Shown here in pieces: positions 10,313 to 31,396 of a DNA stretch of 32,000 nt; the first letter of the stretch is position 1; each line of letters opens with the position of its first letter. Below the pieces are notes generated by a model, which was not told the DNA's origin, made no database searches, and worked only from the letters and a program-made list of their open reading frames with translations. The DNA comes from Halorhodospira halophila SL1 (GTDB lineage: Bacteria > Pseudomonadota > Gammaproteobacteria > Nitrococcales > Halorhodospiraceae): the NCBI RefSeq assembly GCF_000015585.1, contig NC_008789.1, forward strand, positions 30,001 to 62,000, read 5' to 3'. Both the position numbers and the translations under genes were made by a program.

Positions 10313-11302
10313 CTAGCGCCGTCGCGTCTGCCTCGCGAACCGTTCCACGGTCTTGGCCGGGACATCGCCGATGGCGGTGACCTGATGGTCCTCCACGGGG
10401 CGCTCGTAGGCATGGAGGGCGCCGGCCCGCGCCTGGCCCTCGTTACCGCCCGGCTCTGGGGCGATATAGACGGAGACGGAGGCCAGGCCATCGCTAAACA
10501 GCAGGTGCTCGATGGGGTCCTGCCCCGGCTCGGGTGAGGGAATACGACCGTGTGCGATGCGTGAGAAACCCGCCGGTACATCGATCACTTCCCACTCCGG
10601 CTCGCCGCTGTCGTCGCTCTCCTCGGCCAGGCGCCGCTCGACCCGCCGCTGCGCCTCACCAACGGGCTCCAACTCTTCGGCGTCGATATCGTCACGAAGG
10701 GTGAAGCTCGTGAACAGCAGGCGTTCGATGACGCGGCGCCCGTCGAGCAACTGGGCATGAAGCGGTAGGCCGCTCTCCTCGTCGACCCACAGCCGGTGAC
10801 CGTAACGCAACTGATCCAGTGGTTCGACGGCGATGACCGTAGTCGGGCGGCCGGCGACCCGTCCCTCGCCTTGGAGCTGGATGCGGTAGAGGTCTTCGGA
10901 GATGCTGTCCGCCCGGGGCCACCCCTCGCCGAGGGAGGTGACCACGCCACTGCCACGCAGGCGATCGCCCTTAGCAATGGGGCCGGCAAGCAGGGCGCCC
11001 TCCGGGGTGCGGATCATCTCCCGATGGGAGCCGGTGAGCATCTCCAGCCGCTGATGGCGCCCCGAATCACCGGCTCTGTGCACGATGTGCACGGTCTCCA
11101 CCACCCCGGCCCGGGCGTAGACAAAGATCCCCTCATAGGAGTGCTGATCCAGGGCCTCGACCATCCGGTTGAGGGCCTCCCGGCCCTCTTCGCCCGCGCC
11201 CCGATCCGTACCCTCCGCCAGGGCCACCTGGCCGTTGGCGATCCAGAAAAGGCCGGCGCACAGGAGTGCGCGGAGGAACCACGCACGGTCAGGGATCCCC
11301 AT
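10313..11302 (-). CDS. rseB: Sigma-E regulatory protein RseB/MucB
   Basis: 329 aa with a signal peptide (LLCAGLFWIANGQVALAEG). ALNRMVEALDQHSYEGIFVYARAGVVETVHIVH is typical of the RseB/MucB N-domain. The start overlaps the rseA end by 14 nt. Confidence 0.85.
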   Translation of the reverse strand: MGIPDRAWFLRALLCAGLFWIANGQVALAEGTDRGAGEEGREALNRMVEALDQHSYEGIFVYARAGVVETVHIVHRAGDSGRHQRLEMLTGSHREMIRTPEGALLAGPIAKGDRLRGSGVVTSLGEGWPRADSISEDLYRIQLQGEGRVAGRPTTVIAVEPLDQLRYGHRLWVDEESGLPLHAQLLDGRRVIERLLFTSFTLRDDIDAEELEPVGEAQRRVERRLAEESDDSGEPEWEVIDVPAGFSRIAHGRIPSPEPGQDPIEHLLFSDGLASVSVYIAPEPGGNEGQARAGALHAYERPVEDHQVTAIGDVPAKTVERFARQTRRR

Positions 11303-11969
11303 GCTGCGGTACCCGTACCTGATGAAGCATGCTACCGGGATAATCGGACTCGGCCTGCTCGGCGTGATCGATCATGAAACGGTGCAGCCGCGAGGGCATG
11401 GCATCGGGCACCGGCTCCACAGCGGATTCGCCTGAGGTGCCGGCAGTAGCCCGATCGGTGCCCGGCCAGGGCAACCCGCCGCTGTCGCCCAGGGTCACCG
11501 GACGGACTGTCGTACCGCCCACGGCGCGCTCGCCCCCCGCCGGCGACTCAGCCACCTCGGTCGACGGCTCCCCGCCACCGGCCGTGGGCTCGGTCCCCGC
11601 CCCCGGGGGCGCACCGCCCTGCCACCAGAATACCGTCATCGCTGCGACACTGGCCGCGATCAGCCCGCCGAAGGCCGGTCGGCGCCAGTCTCTGGAAGCA
11701 GCTTGGCGCGCCGCGTCCCGGCGCGCGTCGTAGGCCGGCTCACTGGCCAACTCCGCGCGCACCCGCTCGACCAGATCGGTGCTCGGCTGAGGCGGAAGAT
11801 TGCGCTGCAACGCATCGCGCATCAGGAAGTAGCGGGCCAGCCGCCCACGGGCCTCGGCATCGTGGTCCAGGCGCCGCATCAGGAACGCCCGCTGCTCGCG
11901 CGGCAGCTCGTCATCGACCAGCGCGGAGAGCTGTTCGGCGAGTCGATCCCGATGTTGTTCTTCCGACAT
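11289..11969 (-). CDS. rseA: Anti-sigma-E factor RseA/MucA
   Basis: ORF 11289..12089 trimmed to ATG complement 11967-11969, with SD GGGGGA/AAGGG upstream. The N-terminus MSEEQHRDRLAEQLSALVDDELPREQRAFLMRRL is typical of the anti-sigma-E domain. There is a single TM segment (FGGLIAASVAAMTVFWW), and the gene lies between rpoE and rseB. Confidence 0.85.
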   Translation of the reverse strand: MSEEQHRDRLAEQLSALVDDELPREQRAFLMRRLDHDAEARGRLARYFLMRDALQRNLPPQPSTDLVERVRAELASEPAYDARRDAARQAASRDWRRPAFGGLIAASVAAMTVFWWQGGAPPGAGTEPTAGGGEPSTEVAESPAGGERAVGGTTVRPVTLGDSGGLPWPGTDRATAGTSGESAVEPVPDAMPSRLHRFMIDHAEQAESDYPGSMLHQVRVPQHGDP

Positions 11970-11998
11970 ACCCTTATCCCCCGAAAGCCACCATGCCC

Positions 11999-12583
11999 TT
12001 ATATCTCTTCGCCAGTCAGCGGCCGCAGTCGCTTGTCGATCGCCTCTCGGGCGCGGAAGATGCGCGAGCGAACCGTACCCACCGGGCACTCCATGACCTG
12101 AGCAATCTCCTGGTAACTCAGACCCTCGAGTTCGCGCAGCGTCACCGCAGTGCGCAGCTCCTCGGGCAGCTCGGCGATCGCCTCAACGACCGTCCGTTCA
12201 ACCTCGTCCCGATAGGCTTCGGCCTCCGGCGTATCCTGCTCGCGGAGCATGGTGTCGATGTCAAAACGCTCCGCATCCTGCGCGTCGACGTCCGAGTCCG
12301 GTGGCCGGCGCCCTTGCGCAACCAGGTGGTTCTTGGCCGTGTTAACCCCGATCCGGTAGAGCCAGGTGTAGAAGCTGCTCTCTCCCCGGAACCCGGGAAT
12401 CGCCCGGTAGGCCTTGATAAAGGCCTCCTGCGCCACATCCATTGCCTCCTGCGGATCGCGCACGTAACGCGAGATGAGCTTGACCAGCTTTTGCTGGTAG
12501 CGCAGCACGAGGATATCAAAGGCCTGTTTTTCACCGGCCTGTACGCGCTCCACGAGCTCGCGATCCGATTCCTCGGAGCTCAT
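11999..12583 (-). CDS. rpoE: ECF RNA polymerase sigma factor sigma-E (RpoE/AlgU)
   Basis: ORF 11999..12679 trimmed to ATG complement 12581-12583 (MSSEESDRELVERVQAGEKQAFDILVLRYQQKL), with SD GGAGGG upstream. Region 2 and region 4 (LEGLSYQEIAQVMECPVGTVRSRIFRAREAI) are present. Confidence 0.93.
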   Translation of the reverse strand: MSSEESDRELVERVQAGEKQAFDILVLRYQQKLVKLISRYVRDPQEAMDVAQEAFIKAYRAIPGFRGESSFYTWLYRIGVNTAKNHLVAQGRRPPDSDVDAQDAERFDIDTMLREQDTPEAEAYRDEVERTVVEAIAELPEELRTAVTLRELEGLSYQEIAQVMECPVGTVRSRIFRAREAIDKRLRPLTGEEI

Positions 12584-12627
12584 CGCCACCGGCGCCCTCC
12601 GATATCGGTGCGCCGGTACTTGCTGCT

Positions 12628-12654
12628 GTAGACACTCCGCTGGGGCGTGAGTTC
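12628..12654 (-). promoter_or_regulatory. Candidate sigma-E-dependent (autoregulated) promoter of rpoE
   Basis: The minus strand reads cGAACTC-N16-TCTACa, with the -35 at 12649-12654 and the -10 at 12628-12632. This resembles the recalled sigmaE/AlgU consensus GGAACTT-N16-TCnnA. The -10 lies about 45 nt upstream of the rpoE ATG. Confidence 0.4.
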
Positions 12655-12761
12655 GCGCACGGGTCCGAGAATCTGGCAATCGTGGGTGGGTGATTTGCCG
12701 CGGGTGGCGCGGCGTGCGAAGCTTTGCAGCCTATCCGATAGGCTGGCAAAAGCGCAACCAA

Positions 12762-14405
12762 ATGGCGGAACCAAGAACAGCTTACGACGTGGTGGTGATC
12801 GGCAGTGGGCTCGCCGGGCTGACCGTGGCGCTGCAACTCCCCGGCGATCTGAGAGTGGCCGTTCTCTCTAAGGGGACGCTGACCGAAGGCGCCACGCCCT
12901 ACGCGCAGGGTGGCGTGTCGGCGGCGCTGGATGCCGCGGACTCGGTCGATGCCCACGTCGCGGACACCCTGGAGGCGGGTGCCGCACTGAACGACCCGGA
13001 CGTCACCCGGTTCGTCGCCGAGCGCGCTCGCACCGCCATCGAATGGCTGGTCGACCAAGAGGTGCCGTTTTCGCGCATCACCCTCGGCGATGGCACCGCC
13101 GGCCTGCACCTCCACCAAGAGGGCGGGCACAGCCATCGGCGGGTTGTCCACGCCGACGATGCCACCGGCGCGGCGATCTCCCGGAGCCTGTCGGCGCTCG
13201 TGATCGAGCGGGGCAATATCGACTTACTAGAAGGTCGTTACGCGGTGGACCTGATCACCGGGGCCCGGCTCGGCGCAACGGACGACCGTTGCTACGGCGC
13301 CTACGTGTTTGACCAGGCCAGCGGCCGCGTAGAGCTGCTCAGCGCACCGTTTGTGGTGCTCGCCTGCGGCGGCGCGAGCAAGGTCTACCTCTACTCGACC
13401 AGCCCCTACGCCGCCACGGGCGACGGGATCGCCATGGCCTGGCGGGCCGGCTGCCGGGTGGGCAACCTGGAATTCAACCAGTTCCACCCCACCTGCCTGT
13501 ACCACCCGGACGAGCGGTCGTTCCTGATCAGCGAGGCGGTCCGCGGAGAGGGTGGCCATCTACTGCTGCCCAGCGGGGAGCGCTTCATGCACCGGTTCGA
13601 CGCGCGCGGCGAACTCGCCCCGCGCGATATTGTCGCCCGGGCCATCGACTACGAGATGAAACGCCTCGGCGCAGAATGCCTCTACCTGGATATCAGTCAC
13701 CAGCCGGATGCGCTGATCGAGGAGCACTTCCCGACCATCCTGCGGCGCTGTCAGGAGCTCGGCATCGATATGCGTCGCGAGCCGCTGCCGGTCGTACCGG
13801 CCGCCCACTACACCTGCGGCGGTGTCGTCGCCGATCGCCGCGGACGAACCGACGTACCCGGCCTCTACGCCGTCGGCGAGACGGCCTGCAGCGGGCTGCA
13901 CGGTGCCAATCGCCTGGCGAGCAACTCCCTGCTTGAGTGCCTGGTCTTCGGCGCCGAGGCAGCGCGCGATATTGCCGCCGAGGCGCAGCACGCGGTCTCG
14001 ATGCCGGAACTCCCGGCCTGGGATGAAAGCCGGGTCACTGACTCCGACGAGCAGGTGGTGGTCAGTCACAACTGGGCCGAACTCCGCCGCGCGATGTGGA
14101 ATTACGTCGGTATCGTGCGCAGCGACCGCAGGCTGGAACGGGCAGCACGGCGCATCGACCTGCTCTCCCGGGAGGTTCATGAGTACTACAGCCATTTCCG
14201 CATCAGCGGCGATCTGATTGAGTTGCGCAACCTCATCGAGGTCGCCAACCTGACGGTCCGATGTGCGGGGCGTCGCCGCGAGAGTCGCGGCCTCCACTTT
14301 ACCCTCGACTTCCCCGAGCGCGACGACGAACAGACCACGGCCACCATCCTGCGCCCGCCAAAGCCCCGCCCCTTCGGCCACCTGCGCTCCTGCCGCGAAG
14401 CCTAG
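12762..14405 (+). CDS. nadB: L-aspartate oxidase
   Basis: ORF 12690..14405 trimmed to ATG 12762 (MAEPRTAYDVVVIGSGLAGLTVAL, dinucleotide fold). It shows fumarate reductase/succinate dehydrogenase-family flavoprotein motifs (HYTCGGV, GETACSGLHGANRLASNSLLE). It is divergent from rpoE, as in E. coli. Confidence 0.92.
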   Translation: MAEPRTAYDVVVIGSGLAGLTVALQLPGDLRVAVLSKGTLTEGATPYAQGGVSAALDAADSVDAHVADTLEAGAALNDPDVTRFVAERARTAIEWLVDQEVPFSRITLGDGTAGLHLHQEGGHSHRRVVHADDATGAAISRSLSALVIERGNIDLLEGRYAVDLITGARLGATDDRCYGAYVFDQASGRVELLSAPFVVLACGGASKVYLYSTSPYAATGDGIAMAWRAGCRVGNLEFNQFHPTCLYHPDERSFLISEAVRGEGGHLLLPSGERFMHRFDARGELAPRDIVARAIDYEMKRLGAECLYLDISHQPDALIEEHFPTILRRCQELGIDMRREPLPVVPAAHYTCGGVVADRRGRTDVPGLYAVGETACSGLHGANRLASNSLLECLVFGAEAARDIAAEAQHAVSMPELPAWDESRVTDSDEQVVVSHNWAELRRAMWNYVGIVRSDRRLERAARRIDLLSREVHEYYSHFRISGDLIELRNLIEVANLTVRCAGRRRESRGLHFTLDFPERDDEQTTATILRPPKPRPFGHLRSCREA

Positions 14406-14841
14406 TGCGCACCGCGGGCTCACCGGGCAGCGAGCGCGTCCAGACCCGCAGGCGCCGGTGGTGCTCCGCGCCGAGCTGACCACGGGGAATAAACAGGTCG
14501 TAACGGCAGCCGTCCACCGTTCGAACGCTCAGCGCCACCAGCCAGGGGTGAGTAAAACGCGTGAGCACCCGGGCCCCCAGCCGGCGCCCGTCCCGGTACT
14601 GGAGGTGGATGCGACCGTCAGTCTGAAGGTGGCACCGGCGCAGCCGTTGCAGACGACTCTGGCTTCGCCGGGCAACGACCAGCGCCCCCACTAGGCTCCC
14701 AGCCCATAGCAGGAACAGTGGCAGCGGCAGGGCGCGGTCGGCCAGCAGGATCACCGTCCCGCAGGCCGTGACCGCCAATGCCGCCAGCCATGCGCCGCTA
14801 ACGCGGGGGCGAAAACTCAGTGGTTCGGATAAGTTCGACAA
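14299..14841 (-). CDS. ygfX: YgfX/CptA-like inner-membrane protein, with an atypical C-terminal tail
   Basis: It lies immediately downstream of sdhE. FRPRVSGAWLAALAVTACGTVILL...LFLLWAGSLVGALVVARRSQ (two TM segments)...GRIHLQYRDG...PWLVALSVR...EHHRRLRVW parallels E. coli YgfX (DLRVSWRAQWLSLLIHGLVAAVILL...EAEWRDLRRIL) as I recall it. The start is uncertain. No ATG is available; TTG at 14839-14841 is chosen and TTG 14880 is the track start. The frame has no stop until 14299. Confidence 0.55.
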   Translation of the reverse strand: MSNLSEPLSFRPRVSGAWLAALAVTACGTVILLADRALPLPLFLLWAGSLVGALVVARRSQSRLQRLRRCHLQTDGRIHLQYRDGRRLGARVLTRFTHPWLVALSVRTVDGCRYDLFIPRGQLGAEHHRRLRVWTRSLPGEPAVRTRLRGRSAGGRRGGALAGAGWWPWSVRRRARGSRG

Positions 14842-15058
14842 TCCGGTGCAGTTCCCCGTCCGTGGGCGATTGCCCGGCAATCAACCAGTCCTGCAGGAAG
14901 TGGTCCTCGAGCCCGAGCAGCCGCTCGAACGCGGCCTGGTCGTGGCTATCGAGCTGCGCGAACCGGTCTTCCAGAAAGCGCTCCAGGAGCAGATCCAGCT
15001 CCTTGGTGCCACGGCGGCAGCGCCAACGCAGCCGCTTGCGTACCGCCGCGGTGTCCAT
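14798..15058 (-). CDS. sdhE: FAD assembly factor SdhE (flavinylation factor of SdhA; CptB)
   Basis: ORF 14798..15178 trimmed to ATG complement 15056-15058. MDTAAVRKRLRWRCRRGTKELDLLLERFLE...D matches the SdhE/DUF339 signature RxxWxxRRGxxELD. The product is 86 aa, and the gene lies 17 nt downstream of sdhB. Confidence 0.88.
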   Translation of the reverse strand: MDTAAVRKRLRWRCRRGTKELDLLLERFLEDRFAQLDSHDQAAFERLLGLEDHFLQDWLIAGQSPTDGELHRIVELIRTTEFSPPR

Positions 15059-15075: not shown

Positions 15076-15864
15076 TCACGTCTCCCGCTCGGCGATCAGC
15101 CGTTTGATGGCACCGATCGCCTTGCCCGGATTCAGGCCCTTCGGGCACGTCGCGGTGCAGTTCATGATGGTATGGCATCGATAGAGCTTGAACGAGTCGT
15201 CGAGCTCATCGAGACGCTTGCCGGTTGCCTCGTCGCGGCTATCGGCGATCCACCGATAGGCCTGCAACAGGGCCGCAGGACCGAGGTAGCGGTCACCGTT
15301 CCACCAGTAACTTGGGCAGGAGGTCGAACAGCAAGCACACAGGATGCACTCGTAGAGCCCGTCGAGGGCCTCACGCTCCTCCTTGGACTGCAGCCGCTCC
15401 TTGTCCGGCGGCGTCGGCGTCTCGGTCTTGATCCACGGCTCCAGCGAGGCGTACTGCGCGTAGAAGTGATTCATGTCGGGGACCAGATCCTTGACCACAT
15501 CCATGTGCGGCAGGGGATAGACCTTCACATCGCCCTTGATCTCGTCCATGCCCTTGGTGCAGGCGAGGGTATTGGTCCCGTCAATGTTCATGGCGCAGGA
15601 GCCGCAGATTCCCTCCCGGCACGAACGCCGGAAGGTCAGCGTCGGGTCGACCTCATCCTTGATCTTGATCAGGGCGTCGAGGACCATCGGACCGGCGCTG
15701 TCGGCATCGATCTCGTAGGTGTCCATACGCGGGGTCGCACCGCCCTCCGGGTCGTAACGATAGACCCGGATGCGCCGGATATTTTCGCTCTTCTCCGCGT
15801 CGGGGGCACGGTAGGTGTAGCCCTTGCGGATGCGGGAGTTGGCGGGAAGCCTGAACTCTGCCAT
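15076..15864 (-). CDS. sdhB: Succinate dehydrogenase iron-sulfur subunit
   Basis: 262 aa with three cluster motifs: [11 protein letters not shown] (2Fe-2S), [12 protein letters not shown] (4Fe-4S) and [12 protein letters not shown] (3Fe-4S). Confidence 0.95.
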
Positions 15865-15883
15865 ATCTGTCTCCCTGGATTCT

Positions 15884-17674
15884 TTAGTACACCCGGGCCT
15901 TGGGAGGGATCGCCTCCACGTCGTCGCTCAGGGTATGGAGGTGGACGGGGCGATAGGCGATATCCACGGAGCCGTCGCTGCGCAGCGTCGACAGCGTGTG
16001 CTTGAGCCAGTTCTCGTCATCGCGCTCGGCGTAATCCTCGCGGGCGTGGGCCCCGCGACTTTCGAGCCGGTTGCGCGCTGAGTGAATCGTGGTCACGGCA
16101 CTACCCAGGAGATTCTCCAGCTCCAGCGTCTCGATCAGGTCCGAGTTCCAGATCAGCGACCGGTCGGTCACCCCGACATCGGCGAAGCCACGGAAGACAT
16201 CGTCCATCCGGTTGCAGCCCTGCTCCAACACATCCCCGGTACGGAAGACCGCGGCGTAGTTCTGCATGGTGTTCTGCATCTCTCTGCGCAGCTGCGCTGT
16301 CGGCTTGCTGCCGTTGGCGCGGCGCAGCCGGTCCAGTCGCTGCAGAGCCAGATCCGCGGCGCCGGCGGGCAGCGGCGCATGGGGCTTGCCGCGGCCACCG
16401 ATGACCTCAGCCGCTCGGTGGGCGGCCGCACGGCCAAACACCACCAGATCGAGCAGCGAATTCGAACCCAGGCGATTGGCGCCGTGCACCGAGACGCAGG
16501 CGGCCTCTCCGATCGCCATCAGTCCCGGAACCACGGCGTCGGGATCGCCGTCCTTGAGGTGCACCACCTCGCCCATGTGATTGGTGGGGATCCCGCCCAT
16601 GTTGTAGTGGACGGTGGGCAGAACCGGGATCGGCTCCTTGGTGACATCCACGCCGGCAAAGATCTGTGCCGACTCGGCAATCCCCGGCAGTCGCTCGTGG
16701 ATGACCTCCGGGCCGAGGTGCTCCAGGTGCAGGTGGATGTGATCGCCGTGCTCGCCGACCCCCCGCCCCTCACGGATCTCGATGGTCATCGACCGCGATA
16801 CCACGTCCCGCGAGGCCAGGTCCTTAGCATTGGGGGCGTACCGCTCCATGAAGCGCTCGCCCTGGGCGTTGGTGAGATACCCGCCCTCGCCTCGCACCCC
16901 CTCGGTAATCAGGCAGCCCGCGCCGTAGATGCCGGTGGGGTGGAACTGGACGAACTCCATATCCTGCAACGGCAGACCGGCCCGCAACACCATGCCGTTA
17001 CCGTCGCCCGTACAGGTGTGCGCCGAGGTGCAGGAGAAGTAGCTACGGCCATAACCGCCGGTGGCCAGTACGACCTGGTGGGCCCGGAAGATGTGGACCG
17101 TACCGGTCTCCATATCGAGCGTCACCACACCCCGACAGACCCCATCGTCCATCATCAGGTCGATGGCGAAGTGCTCGATGTAGAACTCCGCCTTGTGCTT
17201 GAGCGCCTGCTGATACAGCGTGTGCAGGATCGCGTGCCCGGTCCGGTCAGCAGCGGCGCAGGTCCGCTGGGCCGTCCCCTCCCCGAAGTGGGTGGTCATG
17301 CCGCCAAACGGGCGCTGGTAGATCTTGCCGTCTTCAGTGCGCGAGAAGGGCACGCCGTAGTGCTCCAGCTCGACGATGGCCGGCACTGCCTCGCGGCACA
17401 TGTACTCGATGGCGTCCTGATCCCCGAGCCAGTCCGAGCCCTTGATGGTGTCGTACATGTGCCAGCGCCAGTCGTCCTCACCCATGTTGCCGAGCGCCGC
17501 GGAGACACCACCCTGGGCAGCCACGGTATGGCTGCGCGTAGGGAATACCTTGGTAACGCAGGCGGTATTCAGCCCCTGTTCCGCCATGCCGAAGGTCGCC
17601 CGTAGGCCGGCGCCACCGGCACCGACAACAACGACATCGTACTGGTGCTCGACCGTTTTGATCGGTTCTGTCAT
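15884..17674 (-). CDS. sdhA: Succinate dehydrogenase flavoprotein subunit
   Basis: 596 aa with [15 protein letters not shown], the covalent-FAD His context [14 protein letters not shown], and [21 protein letters not shown]. Confidence 0.95.
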
Positions 17675-17681
17675 CTGCGCC

Positions 17682-18065
17682 TTAGCCCCCCAGAACGATT
17701 TGGATGACCGCCAGGATCCCGGCGACGGCCACCAGGAAACACGCGAAGTAAACAGCGAGGTTGCCGAACCACTTCAGCCCCTCCAGGTGCACGTAGTCTT
17801 CGATGACCACCTGGACCCCGAGCGCCCCGTGATAGAAGAGCATGATGATGGCCGCGATGAGCAGCGTGGCGTTGAACGGGTTCGCCACCCATGCCCGGGC
17901 CGCCTCGAAGTCGGCACCCGCCTGCAGGGCCAGTCCGATCCCCAGCCACATCATCAGCGGGACCAGCACCAGCGCCGTAAGGCGTTGGTGCCACCAGTGG
18001 TGGAAGCCGTTCTTAGCCGAACCGAGGCCGCGGGCCCGGGAGACGGCGGTCTCGTACCTGCGCAT
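17682..18065 (-). CDS. sdhD: Succinate dehydrogenase membrane anchor subunit
   Basis: ORF 17682..18212 trimmed to ATG complement 18063-18065 ([32 protein letters not shown]...). It has three hydrophobic segments, and the ATG lies 2 nt after the sdhC stop. Confidence 0.85.
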
Positions 18066-18067
18066 GA

Positions 18068-18457
18068 TCAAAACTCCCCTGCGTAAGCGATCACCCACAC
18101 CAGAGCGGTCAACAGGACACTCGCAGCGAGCACCATGTAGCCGCCGCGATAGACCGCCTTGAGCTCGAAGGCGCGTACGGTGTCCCAGACTAGGTGCCGA
18201 ATCCCGTTGCACAGGTGGTAGGCCAGGCTGAACGTGATCCCCAGCAGCACCAACTGCCCCAACCAGTGCCCCAGCACCTGGGTCAGTAGCTCGTAGTACT
18301 CGGGGCCGGCGGCCAGGGCCATCACCCAGGCGACGAGCAGAACCGCCGCCATGGTGACGAACACCCCGGTGCCCCGGTGCAGCACGGAGAGCAGCGAGGT
18401 CAATTGCGGCCGGTAGATGGTCAGGTGCGGAGAGAGCGGACGATTCGGATTTCTCAT
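18068..18457 (-). CDS. sdhC: Succinate dehydrogenase cytochrome b556 subunit
   Basis: 129 aa. MRNPNRPLSPHLTIYRPQLTSLLSVLHRGTG is the canonical SdhC N-terminus. It has three TM segments and is the first gene of the operon. Confidence 0.9.
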   Translation of the reverse strand: MRNPNRPLSPHLTIYRPQLTSLLSVLHRGTGVFVTMAAVLLVAWVMALAAGPEYYELLTQVLGHWLGQLVLLGITFSLAYHLCNGIRHLVWDTVRAFELKAVYRGGYMVLAASVLLTALVWVIAYAGEF

Positions 18458-21209: not shown

Positions 21210-22308
21210 TCAGAGGCCGGCCTTGAGGCTCGCCTGGATGAACGGATCGAGATGGCCGTCGAGCACCGCCTGCGTGTTGCCGATTTCGACCCCCGTCCGC
21301 AGATCCTTGATTCGGGACTGATCGAGGACATAGGAACGGATCTGATTGCCCCAGCCGATATCGGACTTGGTGTCTTCCTGCGCTTCGGCCTCGGCACGGC
21401 GGCGCTGCATCTCCAGCTCGTAGAGCTTGGCGCGCAGCTGGCTCATCGCCGTCGCACGGTTCTTGTGCTGCGACCGGTCGTTCTGCGACTGCACCACGAT
21501 GCCCGTCGGTTCGTGGGTGATACGCACCGCTGACTCGGTGGTGTTGACGTGCTGCCCCCCGGCACCCGAGGCGCGGAAGACGTCCACGCGCAGATCCGAT
21601 GGATCGATCTCGATATCGACATTCTCTTCGTCGATCTCGGGGGAGACGAACACCGAGGAGAACGAGGTGTGCCGACGCCCCCCTGAGTCGAAGGGCGACT
21701 TACGCACCAGGCGATGCACACCGGTCTCCGTGCGCAGCCAGCCGAAGGCATACTCGCCGGAGACCTTGATCGTGGCGCTCTTGACCCCCGCCTCTTGGCC
21801 GGCGGTGACCTCGATAACCTCGGTCTCGAAGCCGCGCGCCTCGGCCCAGCGCAGATACATTCTCAGCAGCATCTCGGCCCAGTCCTGGGCCTCGGTGCCC
21901 CCGGAACCGGCCTGGATATCCAGAAAGGCGTTGGAGGTGTCCATCTCGCCGGAGAACATCCGGCGGAACTCCAGGGTCTCGACCTGCCCGGCAACACGCT
22001 GGATGTCCGCCTGGACCGCCTCGAGGGTCTCTGCGTCCCCCTCCTCCCGGGCCATGGCGACCATCTCGTCGGCATCATCGAGCACCGAGCCGATCTCACC
22101 GAGAGTATTCAGGACCGACTGCAGTTGCGAGCGCTCGCGGCTCAGCCCCTGGGCCGTCTCCGGTTCACTCCAGACGTCGGGGTTCTCCAGCTCACGCAGG
22201 ACTTCTTCTAGCCGTTCACGTTTGCCGGCTTCGTCAAAGATACCCCCTCAGGGCCTCAAAACGCCCTTGCAGGTCTTCGATTTGTTCAAGCAGCGGGTTG
22301 ATCTCCAT
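21210..22308 (-). CDS. prfB: Peptide chain release factor 2, expressed through a programmed +1 frameshift: join(complement 22237-22308; complement 21210-22235)
   Basis: Frame 0 starts at ATG complement 22306-22308 (SD GGAGGT) and encodes [24 protein letters not shown], then an in-frame TGA (22234-22236). The +1 frame continues [26 protein letters not shown]...[13 protein letters not shown]... into the track ORF 21210..22085. The SPF tripeptide (VRKSPFDS) and GGQ (SGAGGQHVN) are present. The total is 365 aa. Confidence 0.93.
22233..22248 (-). promoter_or_regulatory. RF2 autoregulatory +1 frameshift site with internal Shine-Dalgarno
   Basis: The minus strand reads AGGGGG TAT CTT TGA C, the same 16-mer I recall for the E. 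coli prfB shift site. The SD-like AGGGGG lies 3 nt before the slippery CTT, followed by a TGA C stop context. Confidence 0.9.
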
Positions 22309-24364: not shown

Positions 24365-27076
<2,712 letters not shown>

Positions 27077-27172
27077 GCTCCCTCCTGTCCTGCGTTGGCA
27101 GGGCGTTTGGTCGAGTCGCAGCCCCGAGCCTGATACCATGTTCAGCTTCGATGGCAACCCTGACCGTTGAGA

Positions 27173-30100
27173 ATGGCCGCTATTAACCAGGAACCGACCC
27201 GTATTCGAGAGATTCCCTATAACTATACGTCCTTCTCCGACCGTGAGATCGTGGTCCGTTTCCTCGGCGAGGAGACCTGGGACCTGCTCAACGAGCTGCG
27301 AGGCGAGCGTCGCACCGGGATCTCGGCGCGCATGCTCTTCGAGGTCCTCGGCGATCTCTGGGTTGTCTCCCGTAATCCTTACATCCAGGACGACCTGATC
27401 AACACCCCCAAGCGGCTGCGCGCGCTGGTCAGCTCCATGCACCACCGCGTCGACCAGATCTTCGCGCGCGCCAATGGCAACCAGAAGGGCATCGATCTGG
27501 GTGAGCGCGCCCGTCGGGCCGTCCAGGAGTTCGAGCAGCACTACCGTCGTCAGCGCCAGCGCCGGCAGCGCATCAAGCGCCGCCTTGCGCGCTTCACGCG
27601 CAGCGACAACATCTGCTTCGACGGGCTCTCGCGCGTCTCCCACGCCACCGACGCGACGGACTGGCGCGTCGAAATCCCCTTCCTCGTCCTGACTCCGGAC
27701 ACCGAGGAGGAGATCGCCCCGCTGGTAGCAACCTGCATCGAAGAGGGTCTGACCATCATCCCCCGCGGTGGCGGCACCGGGTACACCGGTGGCGCCGTGC
27801 CGCTCGATGGCGACTCGGCGGTCATCAACACCGAGAAGCTCGACGCCATCTCCCCCGTCGAAGAGGTCGACCTCCCCGGGGTCGATACCCCGGTGAGCAC
27901 CATCCACGTCGGTGCCGGCGCCGTGACCCGCCGGGTCAGCGAGCGAGCCGAGGCCCACGGCCGCGTCTTTGCCGTGGATCCGACCTCCCAGGACGCCTCG
28001 ACCATCGGCGGCAACATCTCCATGAACGCCGGCGGCAAGAAGGCGGTGCTTTGGGGGACGACCCTCGACAACATCGTCTCCTACCGCATGATCACCGCCG
28101 AGGCCAAGTGGATCGAGGTGGAGCGCCTCGACCACAACCTGGGCAAGCTCGACGATCTCGATACCGTGCGCTTCCGGGTCACCCGGTATGCCCGCGATGG
28201 GCAGACCCAGGAGGGCGAGCCGGAGATCCTCAGCTTCTCGGGCACCTCGTTCCGCAAACCGGGGCTCGGCAAGGACGTGACCGACAAATTCCTCGGCGGC
28301 CTGCCCGGGGTCCAGAAGGAAGGGTGCGACGGGCTCATCACCTCGGCCCGCATGCTCGTCCACCGCATGCCTGAACACCAGCGCACCGTATGCCTGGAGT
28401 TCTACGGCGACGACCTCCACGAGGCCGTTCCGGCGATCACGGAGATCCGCGACGACCTGCTCGCCGACGAACAAGTGGCGCTTGCCGGGCTCGAGCACCT
28501 CGACGAACGCTACATCCAGGCCGTGGACTATTCGCCCAAGGCCAATCGCAGCGAAATCCCCAAGATGATTCTCCTCGCCGACCTGGCCAGTGATCATCCG
28601 GACGCCGTCGGCGAGGCGGCCTCGCGCATCGTGCGACTGGCCAATCAGCGCAACGGCGAAGGCTTCATTGCGGTCTCGGAGGAAGCCCAGCGGCGATTCT
28701 GGGCCGAGCGCTCGCGTACCGCGGCCATCGCCTCGCACACCAACGCGTTCAAGATCAACGAGGACGTCGTCATCCCGCTGGAGCGCCTGGCCGAGTACAC
28801 CGAAGGCGTCGAGCGCATCAACGTCGAGCAGTCCATGCGCAACAAACTCGCCATGCTCAGCGAGCTACTGGACTATCTCGGCGGCGACATGCCTGAGGTC
28901 CGTCAGGTCAAGGACTTTGAGGACAGCGAGGAAGGCGATCGAATCCTCGCCGACAAGAAGGCGGCGGCGCGGGATCACCTGAGCCAGGTCCGAGAACGCT
29001 GGCAACAGATCCTCGAGGCCTTTGACGCCGCGGCCGCCGACCGGGACGATCTGCTCGACGATACCGCCCGGGCGGACCTTCGCGCCGGGGATCGGATCAT
29101 CGACCTGCTGCTGCGCCGCAGTCTGCGCATCTCCTACCGGCGCGAGGTGGAGCGTCCCCTGGAGGAGTTCTTCAAGGGGCGCGATCTGCAGCCGGTGCGG
29201 GCCCGCTTCACCGAGATCCACGACCGCGTCCTGCGCAGCCGGCTGTTCGTCGCCCTACACATGCACGCCGGCGATGGCAACGTGCACACCAACATCCCGG
29301 TCAACTCCGGCGATTACGGCATGATGCGCGAGGCCGAGCGCATCGTGGATCGCATCATGGAGCTGGCGCAGTCCCTGGGTGGCGTGATCACCGGCGAGCA
29401 CGGCGTCGGCCTGACCAAGATGCAGTACCTGGACCCGGAGCAGGTCCAGCGTTTCGCTGAGTTCATCGACCGGGTCGACCCGGAGGGACGGTTCAACCGC
29501 GGCAAGCTCATGCCGGGTTCCGGGCTCGAGAACGCCTATACGCCCTCCCTGTTCCTGGTGGAGGAAGAGGCGCTGATCCTCGAGGAGAGCGAGCTCGGTG
29601 AGCTCAACCGCGATATCAAGGACTGCCTGCGCTGCGGCAAGTGCAAGCCGGTGTGCAGCACCCACGTGCCGCGGGCCAACCTGCTCTATTCGCCGCGCAA
29701 CAAGATCCTCGCGGCGGGGCTGATCATCGAGGCCTTCCTCTACGAGGAGCAGACACGGCGCGGACTGTCGTTGCGCCACTTCGACGTCATGAACGACGTG
29801 GCGGATCACTGCACCATCTGCCACAAGTGCCTCAAGCCCTGCCCCGTGAACATCGACTTCGGTGATGTCACCATCCGCCTGCGCGACATCCTGCAGCGGC
29901 GCAAGCAGCGTCGGACGCGGCTGCAGACGCGGGTGGCGATGGGCTTCCTGAACCTCACCGATCCGCGCCTGATCAAGGCCCTGCGCCTCGGCATGGCGCG
30001 CTTCGGGTTCGCGGCGCAACGCCAGGTATCCCAAGGCCTGAGGCGGATGGGCGTCTTCCCGCTCAAGCGGCGCCCGGGCAGCACCACGGAACGCTCGAGC

Positions 30101-31033
30101 ATCCCCGCTCAGGCCGTGCACTTCCTGGAGAAGCCGATGCCGGCCGCAGTGCCGCCGCAGGGCATGCGCCAGATCCTCGGCGCCGAGGAGTCGGATCACA
30201 TCCCGATCATCCGGGACCCGCAACGGACCGATGAAAACAGCGAGGCGGTGTTCTACTTCCCGGGCTGTGGCCCCGAACGGCTGTTCAGTCAGGTCGGGAT
30301 GGCAACCCTGGCGATGCTTCACGACTCCGGCGTCAAGACGGTGCTGCCCCCCGGCTATCTGTGCTGCGGCTACCCCCAGCATGCCGGCGGGTACATCGAC
30401 CGGGCTAAGGAGATCACTACGGCCAACCGGGTCCTCCTCCACCGCGTGGCCAACACCCTGAACTACATGGACATCCAGACGGTGGTGGTCTCTTGCGGCA
30501 CCTGCATCAGCCAGCTTGAGCTCTACGAGTTCAACCGGATCTTCCCGGGGTGCCGACTGATCGACATCCACGAGTTCCTGCTGGAAAAGGGCTATCGACT
30601 GGAGGGCAGTAAAGAGACGCAGTACCTCTATCACGACCCCTGCCACCCGTCGATCAAGACGCAGAACCCCACGGGGGTGGCCTCGGAGCTGATGGGGCAA
30701 CCGGTTCAGCTCTCCGATCGCTGCTGCGGTGAGTCGGGCATCTTCGCCGTATCGCGCCCGGACATCTCCAGCCAGGTGCGCCACCGCAAGCAGGAGGAGA
30801 TCCGCCAGGGCGTGCAGTCCCTGACCGGAGCGGCGCGTGCCGAGGACGGCAACGTGCGCATGCTGACCACCTGCCCCTCCTGCCTGCAGGGATTGTCGCG
30901 CTATCGCGAGGACACCGGTGTCGAGGCCGACTACATCGTCACCGAGATGGCGCGGGAGCTCCTCGGCGAGGACTGGCAGGAGCGCTTCACGGAGCAAGCG
31001 CGTAAGGGCAGTCTGGAGAAGGTGCTGCTGTAA
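27173..31033 (+). CDS. Giant FAD-linked oxidase / Fe-S (2x[4Fe-4S] + 2xCCG) oxidoreductase with an uncharacterised N-terminal domain (DUF3683-like as I recall)
   Basis: 1286 aa from ATG 27173; the track start at 27167 is TTG. N-domain: [42 protein letters not shown]-binding PCMH domain: [16 protein letters not shown] and [16 protein letters not shown]/GlcD-type C-terminal motifs: [11 protein letters not shown] and [13 protein letters not shown]. Ferredoxin motifs: [11 protein letters not shown] (29624-29656) and [12 protein letters not shown] (29810-29845). Two CCG modules: FPGCG...LCCGYP (30266-30370) and HDPCH...RCCGESG (30641-30730). Confidence 0.85.
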
Positions 31034-31060: not shown

Positions 31061-31396
31061 ATGATGGAGCTACTCGACGAGTTGCTATGGCGATCCGGCA
31101 CCTGGGTGCATGGGCATGTGCACGACATCGCCCTAGCGCTGATCGCCACGCTGCTCGTCGTCTATGGCAGCAGCATCAACCGGTTCGTCGCCCGCCCCCT
31201 GCGCCCCTACCCCTGGCTGATGCGCGTCGGCGCCTTTGTCCTGATGTGCGCGTTCGGCTACGGTCTGGTCACAGTGTGGGTCACGCCGCTGCTTGCCGAA
31301 GCCCTGCTCTACATCGAGACCCGTTACCTAGGGGTGGCCGTCATCGGCGCCTTCCTGGTGATCGGCTGGCTGGCCGAGCGCCGGAACCAGATCTGA
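31061..31396 (+). CDS. Small integral membrane protein (DUF3392-like as I recall)
   Basis: 111 aa, starting 27 nt after the preceding stop, with a G-rich SD (GGGGGCGCAGGG). It has three hydrophobic segments (IALALIATLLVVYG; VGAFVLMCAFGYGLVTVWV; LGVAVIGAFLVIGWL). Confidence 0.7.
   Translation: MMELLDELLWRSGTWVHGHVHDIALALIATLLVVYGSSINRFVARPLRPYPWLMRVGAFVLMCAFGYGLVTVWVTPLLAEALLYIETRYLGVAVIGAFLVIGWLAERRNQI

Follow-up and report, generated by a model that had tools for sequence, protein, structure and literature searches.

The question raised by this locus is which substrate is oxidised, and in which pathway, by the dehydrogenase of 1286 amino acids encoded at positions 27173-31033 of the window, a stretch of 32,000 nucleotides from Halorhodospira halophila SL1 (contig NC_008789.1, positions 30,001 to 62,000). 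The protein joins the N-terminal domain DUF3683 to a flavoprotein that binds flavin adenine dinucleotide (FAD), a ferredoxin-like module with two predicted [4Fe-4S] clusters, two CCG cysteine-rich domains and the C-terminal domain DUF3400. An earlier note on this DNA had put it forward as a candidate undescribed enzyme from a family with no assigned substrate. Both statements have been overtaken by the literature: the same six-domain protein was described by Price et al. (2018, PLoS Genet; PMC5764234), who predicted a phosphoglycerate dehydrogenase from mutant genetics.

The dehydrogenase belongs to a very large and strongly conserved bacterial family, a member of which has already been tied to serine synthesis, and nothing marks the window copy, one ordinary ortholog of thousands, as a special variant. 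The chances that it is a quinone-linked D-3-phosphoglycerate dehydrogenase, catalysing the first step of serine synthesis, are in our judgement about even. D-3-phosphoglycerate is favoured as the substrate on account of the published genetics, the three lineages reported to be without serA, the housekeeping character of the conservation and the thermodynamics of the reaction. The proposal of a phosphoglycerate dehydrogenase dates from 2018; a role for DUF3683 and the link to Neisseria are added here, and the adjacency to serA in two Comamonadaceae and to a block of ubi genes in about 30 betaproteobacterial loci is new context.

Genetic evidence for a role in serine synthesis

Burkholderia phytofirmans and Herbaspirillum seropedicae are reported to be without a standard serA, and in each of them a 'FAD-linked oxidase' of this exact domain set (BPHYT_RS03150 and HSERO_RS19500, respectively) was needed for serine synthesis (PMC5764234). 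Mutants of B. phytofirmans resembled serC mutants and were partly rescued by serine, being unfit in defined media and fit in lysogeny broth (LB), in casamino acids and with L-serine as the nitrogen source. H. seropedicae could not do without HSERO_RS19500, and mutants of serC and serB were likewise rare in it; the authors predicted a FAD-linked 3-phosphoglycerate dehydrogenase (PMC5764234). A 68%-identical Rhodoferax homolog was taken in 2024 as 'likely SerA' on the basis of that study (PMC11535334). In the literature library searched, DUF3683 and DUF3400 turned up only in Price et al. 2018 and its preprint.

Judged by sequence, the window product is the ortholog of BPHYT_RS03150, HSERO_RS19500 and the meningococcal protein NMB0998. 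It is 54% identical over residues 7-1286 to the ortholog of Paraburkholderia kururiensis, used as a stand-in for BPHYT_RS03150 itself, and 53-55% identical to the proteins at other Paraburkholderia, Cupriavidus and Janthinobacterium loci. The orthologs of Neisseria, Paraburkholderia and Variovorax have a set of Pfam families identical to that of the window protein, DUF3400 included.

Pathogenic Neisseria are reported to be without phosphoglycerate dehydrogenase, yet N. meningitidis grows without amino acids (PMC2323225, PMC3334622, PMC9973317, PMC13104608). Both genome-scale models of N. meningitidis add the phosphoglycerate dehydrogenase reaction as 'assumed' or 'orphan', a gap that dates back to 2007. 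A tblastn search of a plasmid collection recovered an N. gonorrhoeae ortholog that is 56% identical at 99% coverage and has all six Pfam domains; it is located between dld and a dihydrouridine synthase gene. The complete N. gonorrhoeae chromosomes NZ_CP119140.1 (L005) and NZ_CP119142.1 (~2.17 Mb) are filed as plasmids in this collection and are nearly unannotated. The meningococcal ortholog, assigned by gene order and length, is NMB0998 of strain MC58, a gene of 3834 bp annotated as 'putative oxidoreductase' between dld (NMB0997) and dusC (NMB0999); NMB0997, at 1692 bp, has the same length as the gonococcal open reading frame (ORF) of dld. The model Nmb_iTM560 (PMC3334622 Additional file 1) assigns NMB0998 to 'fumarate reductase' while phosphoglycerate dehydrogenase is listed as orphan, and the predicted domain content of the protein lends that assignment no support.

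Transposon site hybridisation (TraSH) gives a further view of the meningococcal gene. The log ratios for initial rich agar, repeated rich passage, serum and minimal medium, in this order, are +0.77, -1.09, -3.01 and -0.93 for NMB0998, +0.13, -0.27, +0.19 and -0.65 for serB, and +3.05, +0.75, -3.94 and -2.07 for glyA. The data are noisy, and the pattern of NMB0998, dispensable on rich agar and then losing fitness, fits a biosynthetic role.

Family size and conservation

A homolog search returned at least 8000 full-length matches of the same architecture. The 120 matches listed all share that architecture, are about 1259-1456 residues long, in most cases about 1280-1300, and share at least 65% identity with the window protein; they come from Ectothiorhodospiraceae, Chromatiales, Thioalkalivibrio, Acidihalobacter and others, and the top ones listed are a metagenome protein from ENA (96%), a metagenome-assembled genome of Halorhodospira sp. 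(85%) and H. halochloris (75%). A distant full-length member, from Methylacidiphilales (Verrucomicrobia), is 46% identical. A scan of species-representative genomes found at least 80 loci in beta- and gammaproteobacteria, among them Paraburkholderia, Caballeronia, Cupriavidus, Janthinobacterium, Variovorax, Achromobacter, Neisseria, Thiobacillus, Methylotenera, Gallionella, Acidithiobacillus and Methylomonas, and the gene is kept even in a Methylophilaceae genome of 1.3 Mb (L022).

Conservation was read from an alignment of 82 full-length beta- and gammaproteobacterial orthologs, in which 385 of the 1286 positions, including all 18 cluster cysteines, are invariant in at least 81 sequences. Together with more than 8000 matches of the same architecture, these invariant positions show that the domain arrangement lies far beyond chance, and they point to a housekeeping enzyme of the core set, not to an accessory enzyme of catabolism.

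Domain architecture

The single frame of 1286 codons described in the earlier note is borne out by the ORF and its translation: it is open throughout, with its ATG at 27173 and its stop codon at 31031-31033, and the mechanical ORF adds two codons at the 5' end, to TTG 27167. All Pfam scores of the protein, from six families, exceed the curated cutoffs (Table 1).

The N-terminal domain, whose membership of DUF3683 had been suggested in that note and is upheld by Pfam, carries the motif R12-x-x-P15-Y-N-Y-x-S20-x-x-D23 followed in the AlphaFold model by an all-helical bundle at residues 23-138. The motif residues R12, P15, Y16, N17, Y18, S20 and D23 are invariant in 81 of the 82 orthologs. A profile search of the domain against solved structures in PDB gave only noise (E >4), in agreement with the note's description of it as an unknown domain, and a search of a representative library with this domain returned chiefly truncated metagenomic fragments.

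The flavoprotein part had been called GlcD/VAO-type with all hallmark motifs, and the Pfam FAD domains and regular-expression searches concur. GGGTG lies at residues 199-203 (G199, G200, T202 and G203 being invariant), HAGDGNVH at residues 698-705 and GEHG at residues 741-744, and the FAD-binding domain aligns with residues 28-185 of mouse D-lactate dehydrogenase (LDHD). The large insertion that had been suspected is a segment of about 138 residues (543-680) that is extra relative to mouse LDHD. It is predicted to be helical (helices at 536-570, 586-615 and 655-687), is poorly conserved in sequence and has no match in Pfam. A second, shorter insertion relative to mouse LDHD comprises about 44 residues (313-356).

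The C-terminal half had been described as a GlcF/HdrB-like module with two CxxCxxCxxxC and two CCG motifs, which regular expressions and the Pfam families Fer4_8 and CCG both recover. The first pair of motifs lies at residues 818-828 (C818, C821, C824, C828) and 880-890 (C880, C883, C886, C890, followed by proline), and the CCG motifs lie at residues 1064-1066 and 1184-1186. Each CCG domain has five invariant cysteines, namely C1032, C1064, C1065, C1108 and C1111 in the first and C1157, C1184, C1185, C1234 and C1237 in the second. The cluster types of both modules are those that the cysteine patterns would predict.

The 1286-residue protein has no predicted membrane helix, its top 19-residue Kyte-Doolittle mean being 1.03, and it would be soluble or peripheral, acting at the membrane surface without a transmembrane anchor. 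Nor does it match the SerA-type Pfam domains 2-Hacid_dh and 2-Hacid_dh_C, and its relation to SerA is one of analogy, not homology.

Active site and structural models

Mouse LDHD is the best solved-structure match of the flavoprotein part (E 1e-27), followed by an arthropod D-lactate dehydrogenase, RPA1076, LctD and human D-2-hydroxyglutarate dehydrogenase (D2HGDH). The alignment with mouse LDHD falls into three blocks (residues 144-312, 357-542 and 681-779). H705 corresponds to the catalytic histidine, as is seen when the alignment to wild-type mouse LDHD is set beside that to its H405A crystal form, and H698, E742, H743, R513 and K527 align with the remaining conserved active-site residues. 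All six are invariant in the 82 orthologs, save for an aspartate in place of E742 in one.

With its PCMH fold, His-His-Glu metal site, catalytic histidine and carboxylate-binding arginine, the flavoprotein part is predicted to be a metal-dependent D-2-hydroxy-acid dehydrogenase of the VAO/GlcD type. The Fe-S half, with two five-cysteine C...CCG...CxxC domains after a domain for two [4Fe-4S] clusters, has the features expected of the HdrB/GlpC/GlcF-type CCG proteins.

AlphaFold models were built from a 42-sequence alignment in two overlapping pieces, of residues 1-800 (predicted local distance difference test (pLDDT) 81, predicted template modelling score (pTM) 0.78) and of residues 140-1286 (pLDDT 80, pTM 0.59). 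The LDHD-like core of the model reaches a Foldseek TM-score of 0.81 to mouse LDHD, normalised to the target. Residues 1-21 are modelled at a pLDDT below 50 although residues there are invariant; such low confidence is expected of an arm that docks onto a partner absent from the model.

Proposed reaction and its thermodynamics

D-3-phosphoglycerate is a D-2-hydroxy acid. In the proposed reaction it would be oxidised to 3-phosphohydroxypyruvate as step one of serine synthesis, its 2-hydroxy-carboxylate bound on a divalent metal held by H698, H705 and E742, with R513 and H743 assisting, as in mammalian D-lactate dehydrogenase. Hydride would pass from the substrate to FAD, and single electrons would then move from FAD through the two ferredoxin-type [4Fe-4S] clusters and the CCG clusters to the quinone pool. 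The substrate and the quinone acceptor are what we infer from this picture, and the same holds for any roles of DUF3683, the helical insertion and DUF3400.

Were quinone the acceptor instead of NAD+ (nicotinamide adenine dinucleotide), the energetics would shift from strongly unfavourable to favourable. For the NAD-linked reaction of SerA, PMC9504171 quotes +33 kJ/mol. Computed from standard potentials, with the 3-phosphohydroxypyruvate/3-phosphoglycerate couple near -150 mV, the reaction yields about -48 kJ/mol with ubiquinone (about +100 mV) and about -14 kJ/mol with menaquinone (about -74 mV).

A FAD-linked enzyme in such a role has a direct precedent, by analogy, in pdxR of the FAD-linked oxidase family. 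To it has been assigned the part of PdxB as 4-phosphoerythronate dehydrogenase, PdxB being NAD-dependent and itself belonging to the phosphoglycerate dehydrogenase superfamily (PMC9997740).

Gene neighbourhoods across the family

Neighbourhoods were counted from clustered ORFs at 84 loci. Downstream of the dehydrogenase gene and on the same strand, betaproteobacteria have genes for a small GBBH-like_N protein of the DUF971 type (30 loci), ubiE (34), a Tim44-like protein (22), ubiJ/SCP2 (30) and ubiB/ABC1 (26); examples of the ubiE-ubiJ-ubiB block are found at L034 (5847-8668), L033 (19568-21145) and L031 (17578-18021). This linkage is absent from the window and from Halorhodospira, Thioalkalivibrio, Ectothiorhodospira and Neisseria. 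Where it occurs, it fits a quinone link of the dehydrogenase. The ortholog P0046 bears the UniRef name 'Dimethylmenaquinone methyltransferase', which the ubi block may explain.

ilvA is found nearby at 19 of the 84 loci; in betaproteobacteria it lies upstream and divergent, and four gammaproteobacterial loci have it downstream. Five gammaproteobacterial loci have rpiA close by, a gene that immediately adjoins serA in E. coli. A canonical serA lies directly 5' of the dehydrogenase gene, on the same strand, in Variovorax paradoxus (L056, 8635-9867) and Giesbergeria sp. (L076, 8575-9813), placed between a ugpBAEC-ugpQ-like operon and the dehydrogenase gene. Its product shares 62-63% identity with E. 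coli SerA over 410 residues and has the domains 2-Hacid_dh, 2-Hacid_dh_C and ACT. At four loci of related Comamonadaceae (L074, L084, L044, L083) the transporter operon is present and serA is not at that position. The adjacency is the most telling of the genomic links and connects the family independently with the initial step of serine synthesis, albeit in an ambiguous way, since it fits an analogous enzyme beside its counterpart and also a partner of SerA such as D2HGDH.

No catabolic, transporter or regulator operon is conserved around the gene among the compared loci. One of these, L074, is titled Pantoea sp. 18069 and has the Comamonadaceae-type order of ugp operon, DUF3683 gene and ubiE block; the protein encoded there shares 54% identity with that of the window, as at the other betaproteobacterial loci, and the label may be wrong or the assembly contaminated.

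Alternative substrates and roles

Several observations weigh against a phosphoglycerate dehydrogenase. BPHYT_RS03150 and HSERO_RS19500 both failed to complement an E. coli serA mutant (PMC5764234), and the Rhodoferax homolog is absent from the serA-complementing Coaux-Seq fragments, a weak point given that the fragments average about 2-3 kb and the gene about 3.9 kb. Literature searches found no enzymology of any family member. Gonococci made no 13C-serine from 13C-glucose, in a defined medium with serine that is efficiently taken up (PMC13104608, PMC9973317), and in some genomes serA and the dehydrogenase gene stand side by side. This last arrangement, seen in Variovorax and Giesbergeria, also suits the strongest rival, an elaborated analogue of YdiJ acting as D2HGDH, which would oxidise back to 2-oxoglutarate the D-2-hydroxyglutarate formed from it by SerA-type enzymes. 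Serine synthesis would thereby be pulled forward, and the serine-responsive defect on loss of the gene would be indirect. YdiJ has the same core of FAD, two [4Fe-4S] and two CCG domains and is proven to be a strictly specific D2HGDH (PMC9504171), and the coupling of SerA to D2HGDH is reported to drive serine synthesis (Zhang 2017, cited in that paper). A D2HGDH would also account for the failure to complement E. coli serA, and the gene order mirrors that of Acinetobacter, where serA stands beside a FAD-linked oxidase gene (ABUW_0331/0332, PMC12604733). Against it, serA is reported to be missing altogether from B. phytofirmans, H. seropedicae and pathogenic Neisseria, and the fitness screen of H. 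seropedicae revealed no other serine-rescued gene (PMC5764234). Similarity to YdiJ is very low (64 bits against 1350; 23% identity, in the FAD domain only). Canonical GlcD-type D2HGDHs are moreover characterised in Achromobacter denitrificans and Ralstonia solanacearum (PMC9504171), and an Achromobacter genome (L036) carries the gene too, so that a D2HGDH role would be redundant there. On balance a D2HGDH is rather unlikely.

Slightly less probable again is a respiratory dehydrogenase of another D-2-hydroxy acid (D-lactate, glycolate, D-glycerate, D-malate or 4-phosphoerythronate), with the serine phenotype secondary. The closest structures and profiles are D-lactate dehydrogenases and GlcD, and the gene adjoins dld in Neisseria; no curated equivalog model reaches its cutoff, however, and a catabolic enzyme is hard to square with such extreme conservation, with essentiality in H. 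seropedicae and with the want of a transporter or regulator operon. That serine or casamino acids rescue the mutants speaks against vitamin B6 and lactate. A direct part in ubiquinone biosynthesis or its redox support, which the ubi block just 3' on the same strand in about 22-34 of the 84 loci might suggest, seems very improbable: these loci are all betaproteobacterial, so the linkage may be an inherited gene order, the rescue of mutants by amino acids or serine is not explained by a ubiquinone defect, and the active site is of the 2-hydroxy-acid dehydrogenase type.

A wider form of the phosphoglycerate dehydrogenase proposal, which we hold a little less firmly than its core, is that the family stands in for SerA across much of the beta- and gammaproteobacteria (Neisseria, Burkholderia, sulfur oxidisers, methylotrophs and phototrophs including Halorhodospira), that the step thereby becomes thermodynamically irreversible and that the DUF3683 arm serves phosphate recognition or regulation. 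If phosphoglycerate is indeed the substrate, the gap in the metabolic models of Neisseria would be closed, and likewise for Burkholderia and Herbaspirillum. Serine synthesis would then have a second way, coupled to the respiratory chain, around the thermodynamic obstacle at its first step, and a large conserved enzyme without a full-length human counterpart would be a possible target in Neisseria and Burkholderia. For the window copy itself little is added. As an ortholog it is typical, and the idea is already in print.

Genomic context in the window

The upstream neighbour, an AMP-binding gene, is encoded by the minus strand, so that it and the dehydrogenase gene are transcribed divergently (Table 1). 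The neighbour's mechanical minus-strand ORF continues to 28738, antisense to the dehydrogenase gene. The window has a G+C content of 66.6%, at which long spurious ORFs are common. Two plus-strand ORFs considered as operon partners, 24740-26338 (532 residues) and 26525-27133 (202 residues), were rejected; they have no Pfam match, run antisense to a real gene and are high-G+C artefacts.

Downstream, the DUF3392 gene begins 28 nucleotides 3' of the dehydrogenase gene. Among about 85 loci the pairing occurs only in the window and in H. halochloris (L001/L002), whose DUF3392 protein is 59% identical; a membrane anchor or general partner is unlikely in DUF3392, which adjoins the gene only in Halorhodospira. 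The H. halochloris ortholog has the same neighbours as in the window, the AMP-binding gene included, and that of Thioalkalivibrio paradoxus has others, with aceK upstream and an inositol-phosphatase-like gene downstream.

Table 1. Coordinates of the dehydrogenase gene, its domains and its two neighbours in the window
Feature	Position	Strand	Evidence and remarks
Dehydrogenase gene, 1286 aa, DUF3683/FAD/2x[4Fe-4S]/2xCCG/DUF3400	27173..31033	+	ORF, translation, Pfam
DUF3683 N-terminal domain	27200..27586	+	Pfam PF12447, aa 10-121, E 1.6e-49
FAD-binding domain, PCMH/VAO type	27683..28120	+	Pfam PF01565 FAD_binding_4, aa 171-316, E 1e-26
Substrate/cap domain FAD-oxidase_C	28241..29509	+	Pfam PF02913, two stretches ending at aa 779, E 3.5e-31
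Helical insertion in cap domain, ~138 aa (aa 543-680), family-specific	28799..29212	+	Gap between LDHD alignment blocks
Ferredoxin-like module, two predicted [4Fe-4S]	29615..29854	+	Pfam Fer4_8, aa 815-894
Two CCG cysteine-rich domains, GlcF/GlpC/HdrB type	30248..30892	+	Pfam PF02754, two stretches, first aa 1026-1115
C-terminal DUF3400, 45 aa	30896..31030	+	Pfam PF11880, aa 1242-1286, E 1.5e-22
AMP-binding/PP-binding/acyltransferase gene, ~900 aa	24365..27076 (GTG) or 27139 (ATG), start uncertain	-	Pfam
DUF3392 protein, 111 aa, three hydrophobic segments	31061..31396	+	Pfam PF11872, hydropathy

A family search of the window ORFs found no serA within the 32 kb. The window otherwise holds housekeeping genes, namely a gene of the tRNA (uracil-5-)-methyltransferase family, pdxJ, acpS, recO, era, rnc, lepB, lepA, a DegP-like protease gene, rseB, rseA, rpoE, an L-aspartate-oxidase-like flavoprotein gene, sdhCDAB, a ygfZ-like gene, lysS, prfB, and genes for S-adenosylhomocysteine hydrolase and a DUF2452 protein. 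The L-aspartate-oxidase-like flavoprotein (FAD_binding_2; 12690-14405, plus strand) is divergent from rpoE-rseA-rseB (10313-12679, minus strand) and adjoined by a Cpta_toxin-family ORF (14299-14880, minus strand) and sdhCDAB (15076-18457, minus strand), and this region looks like ordinary gammaproteobacterial synteny. The prfB ORF (PCRF and RF-1 domains; 21210-22250, minus strand) starts at position 49 of the PCRF profile, and there is a CTTTGAC heptamer at 22239 on the same strand, in keeping with the programmed +1 frameshift that is classic for release factor 2. As in E. coli, the next gene is lysS. Rfam and tRNA scans of the window found nothing, and promoter and terminator scans around the dehydrogenase gene gave no clear signals.

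Comparison with characterised enzymes

The earlier note had suggested a comparison with YdiJ, GlcDEF and LutABC, and the NCBIfam equivalog models, including that of LdhH, set the 1286-residue protein apart, each scoring it well under its cutoff. The scores are 185 bits against a cutoff of 568 for GlcD (TIGR00387) and 123 against 897 for its second model (NF008408), 86 against 800 for LdhH (NF045670, only the Fe-S/CCG half matching), 80 against 385 for TfrB, 70 against 278 for GlpC, 64.4 against 1350 for YdiJ (NF049975, matching model positions 22-292 of 1018), 41 against 333 for GlcF (NF008434) and 17.6 against 445 for LutB (TIGR00273). The partial matches of the Fe-S/CCG half are to LdhH, TfrB, GlpC and GlcF.

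E. coli YdiJ likewise fuses a VAO/GlcD-type flavoprotein to a module of two [4Fe-4S] and two CCG domains, but at 1018 residues it is shorter, as had been noted for YdiJ-type fusions, and is without DUF3683, the 138-residue helical insertion and DUF3400; BLASTP aligns the two at 23% identity over 274 residues and 21% over 266. In the GlcD/GlcE/GlcF system, GlcD provides the best curated model for the flavoprotein part (BLASTP with E. coli GlcD, 25% over 392 residues and 34% over 109), and the C-terminal half is collinear with GlcF (22% over 421 residues, with residues 810-1213 matching GlcF residues 17-369). The window protein differs in being one polypeptide with extra N-terminal, internal and C-terminal segments, and no GlcE-like gene was found near it among the window ORFs by Pfam.

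The best structural matches, at a TM-score of about 0.81 normalised to the target, are mammalian LDHD (PDB 8jdc and related entries) and D2HGDH (6lpn). They have the metal-binding and catalytic His/His/Glu, Arg and Lys in common with the window protein, whereas they comprise only about 470 residues, are without Fe-S modules and are about 20% identical. PdxR resembles it as a member of the FAD-linked oxidase family assigned the role of the NAD-dependent PdxB on a phosphorylated D-2-hydroxy acid (PMC9997740), but belongs to another branch of the family and acts on another substrate, and the two are likened by description only. Closer relatives are BPHYT_RS03150 and HSERO_RS19500, which have the same six-domain architecture, with the Paraburkholderia ortholog 54% identical end to end and the catalytic and cluster residues kept; they differ in that the host of the window gene is a gammaproteobacterium, Halorhodospira, and that ubiE-ubiJ-ubiB does not adjoin the gene there.

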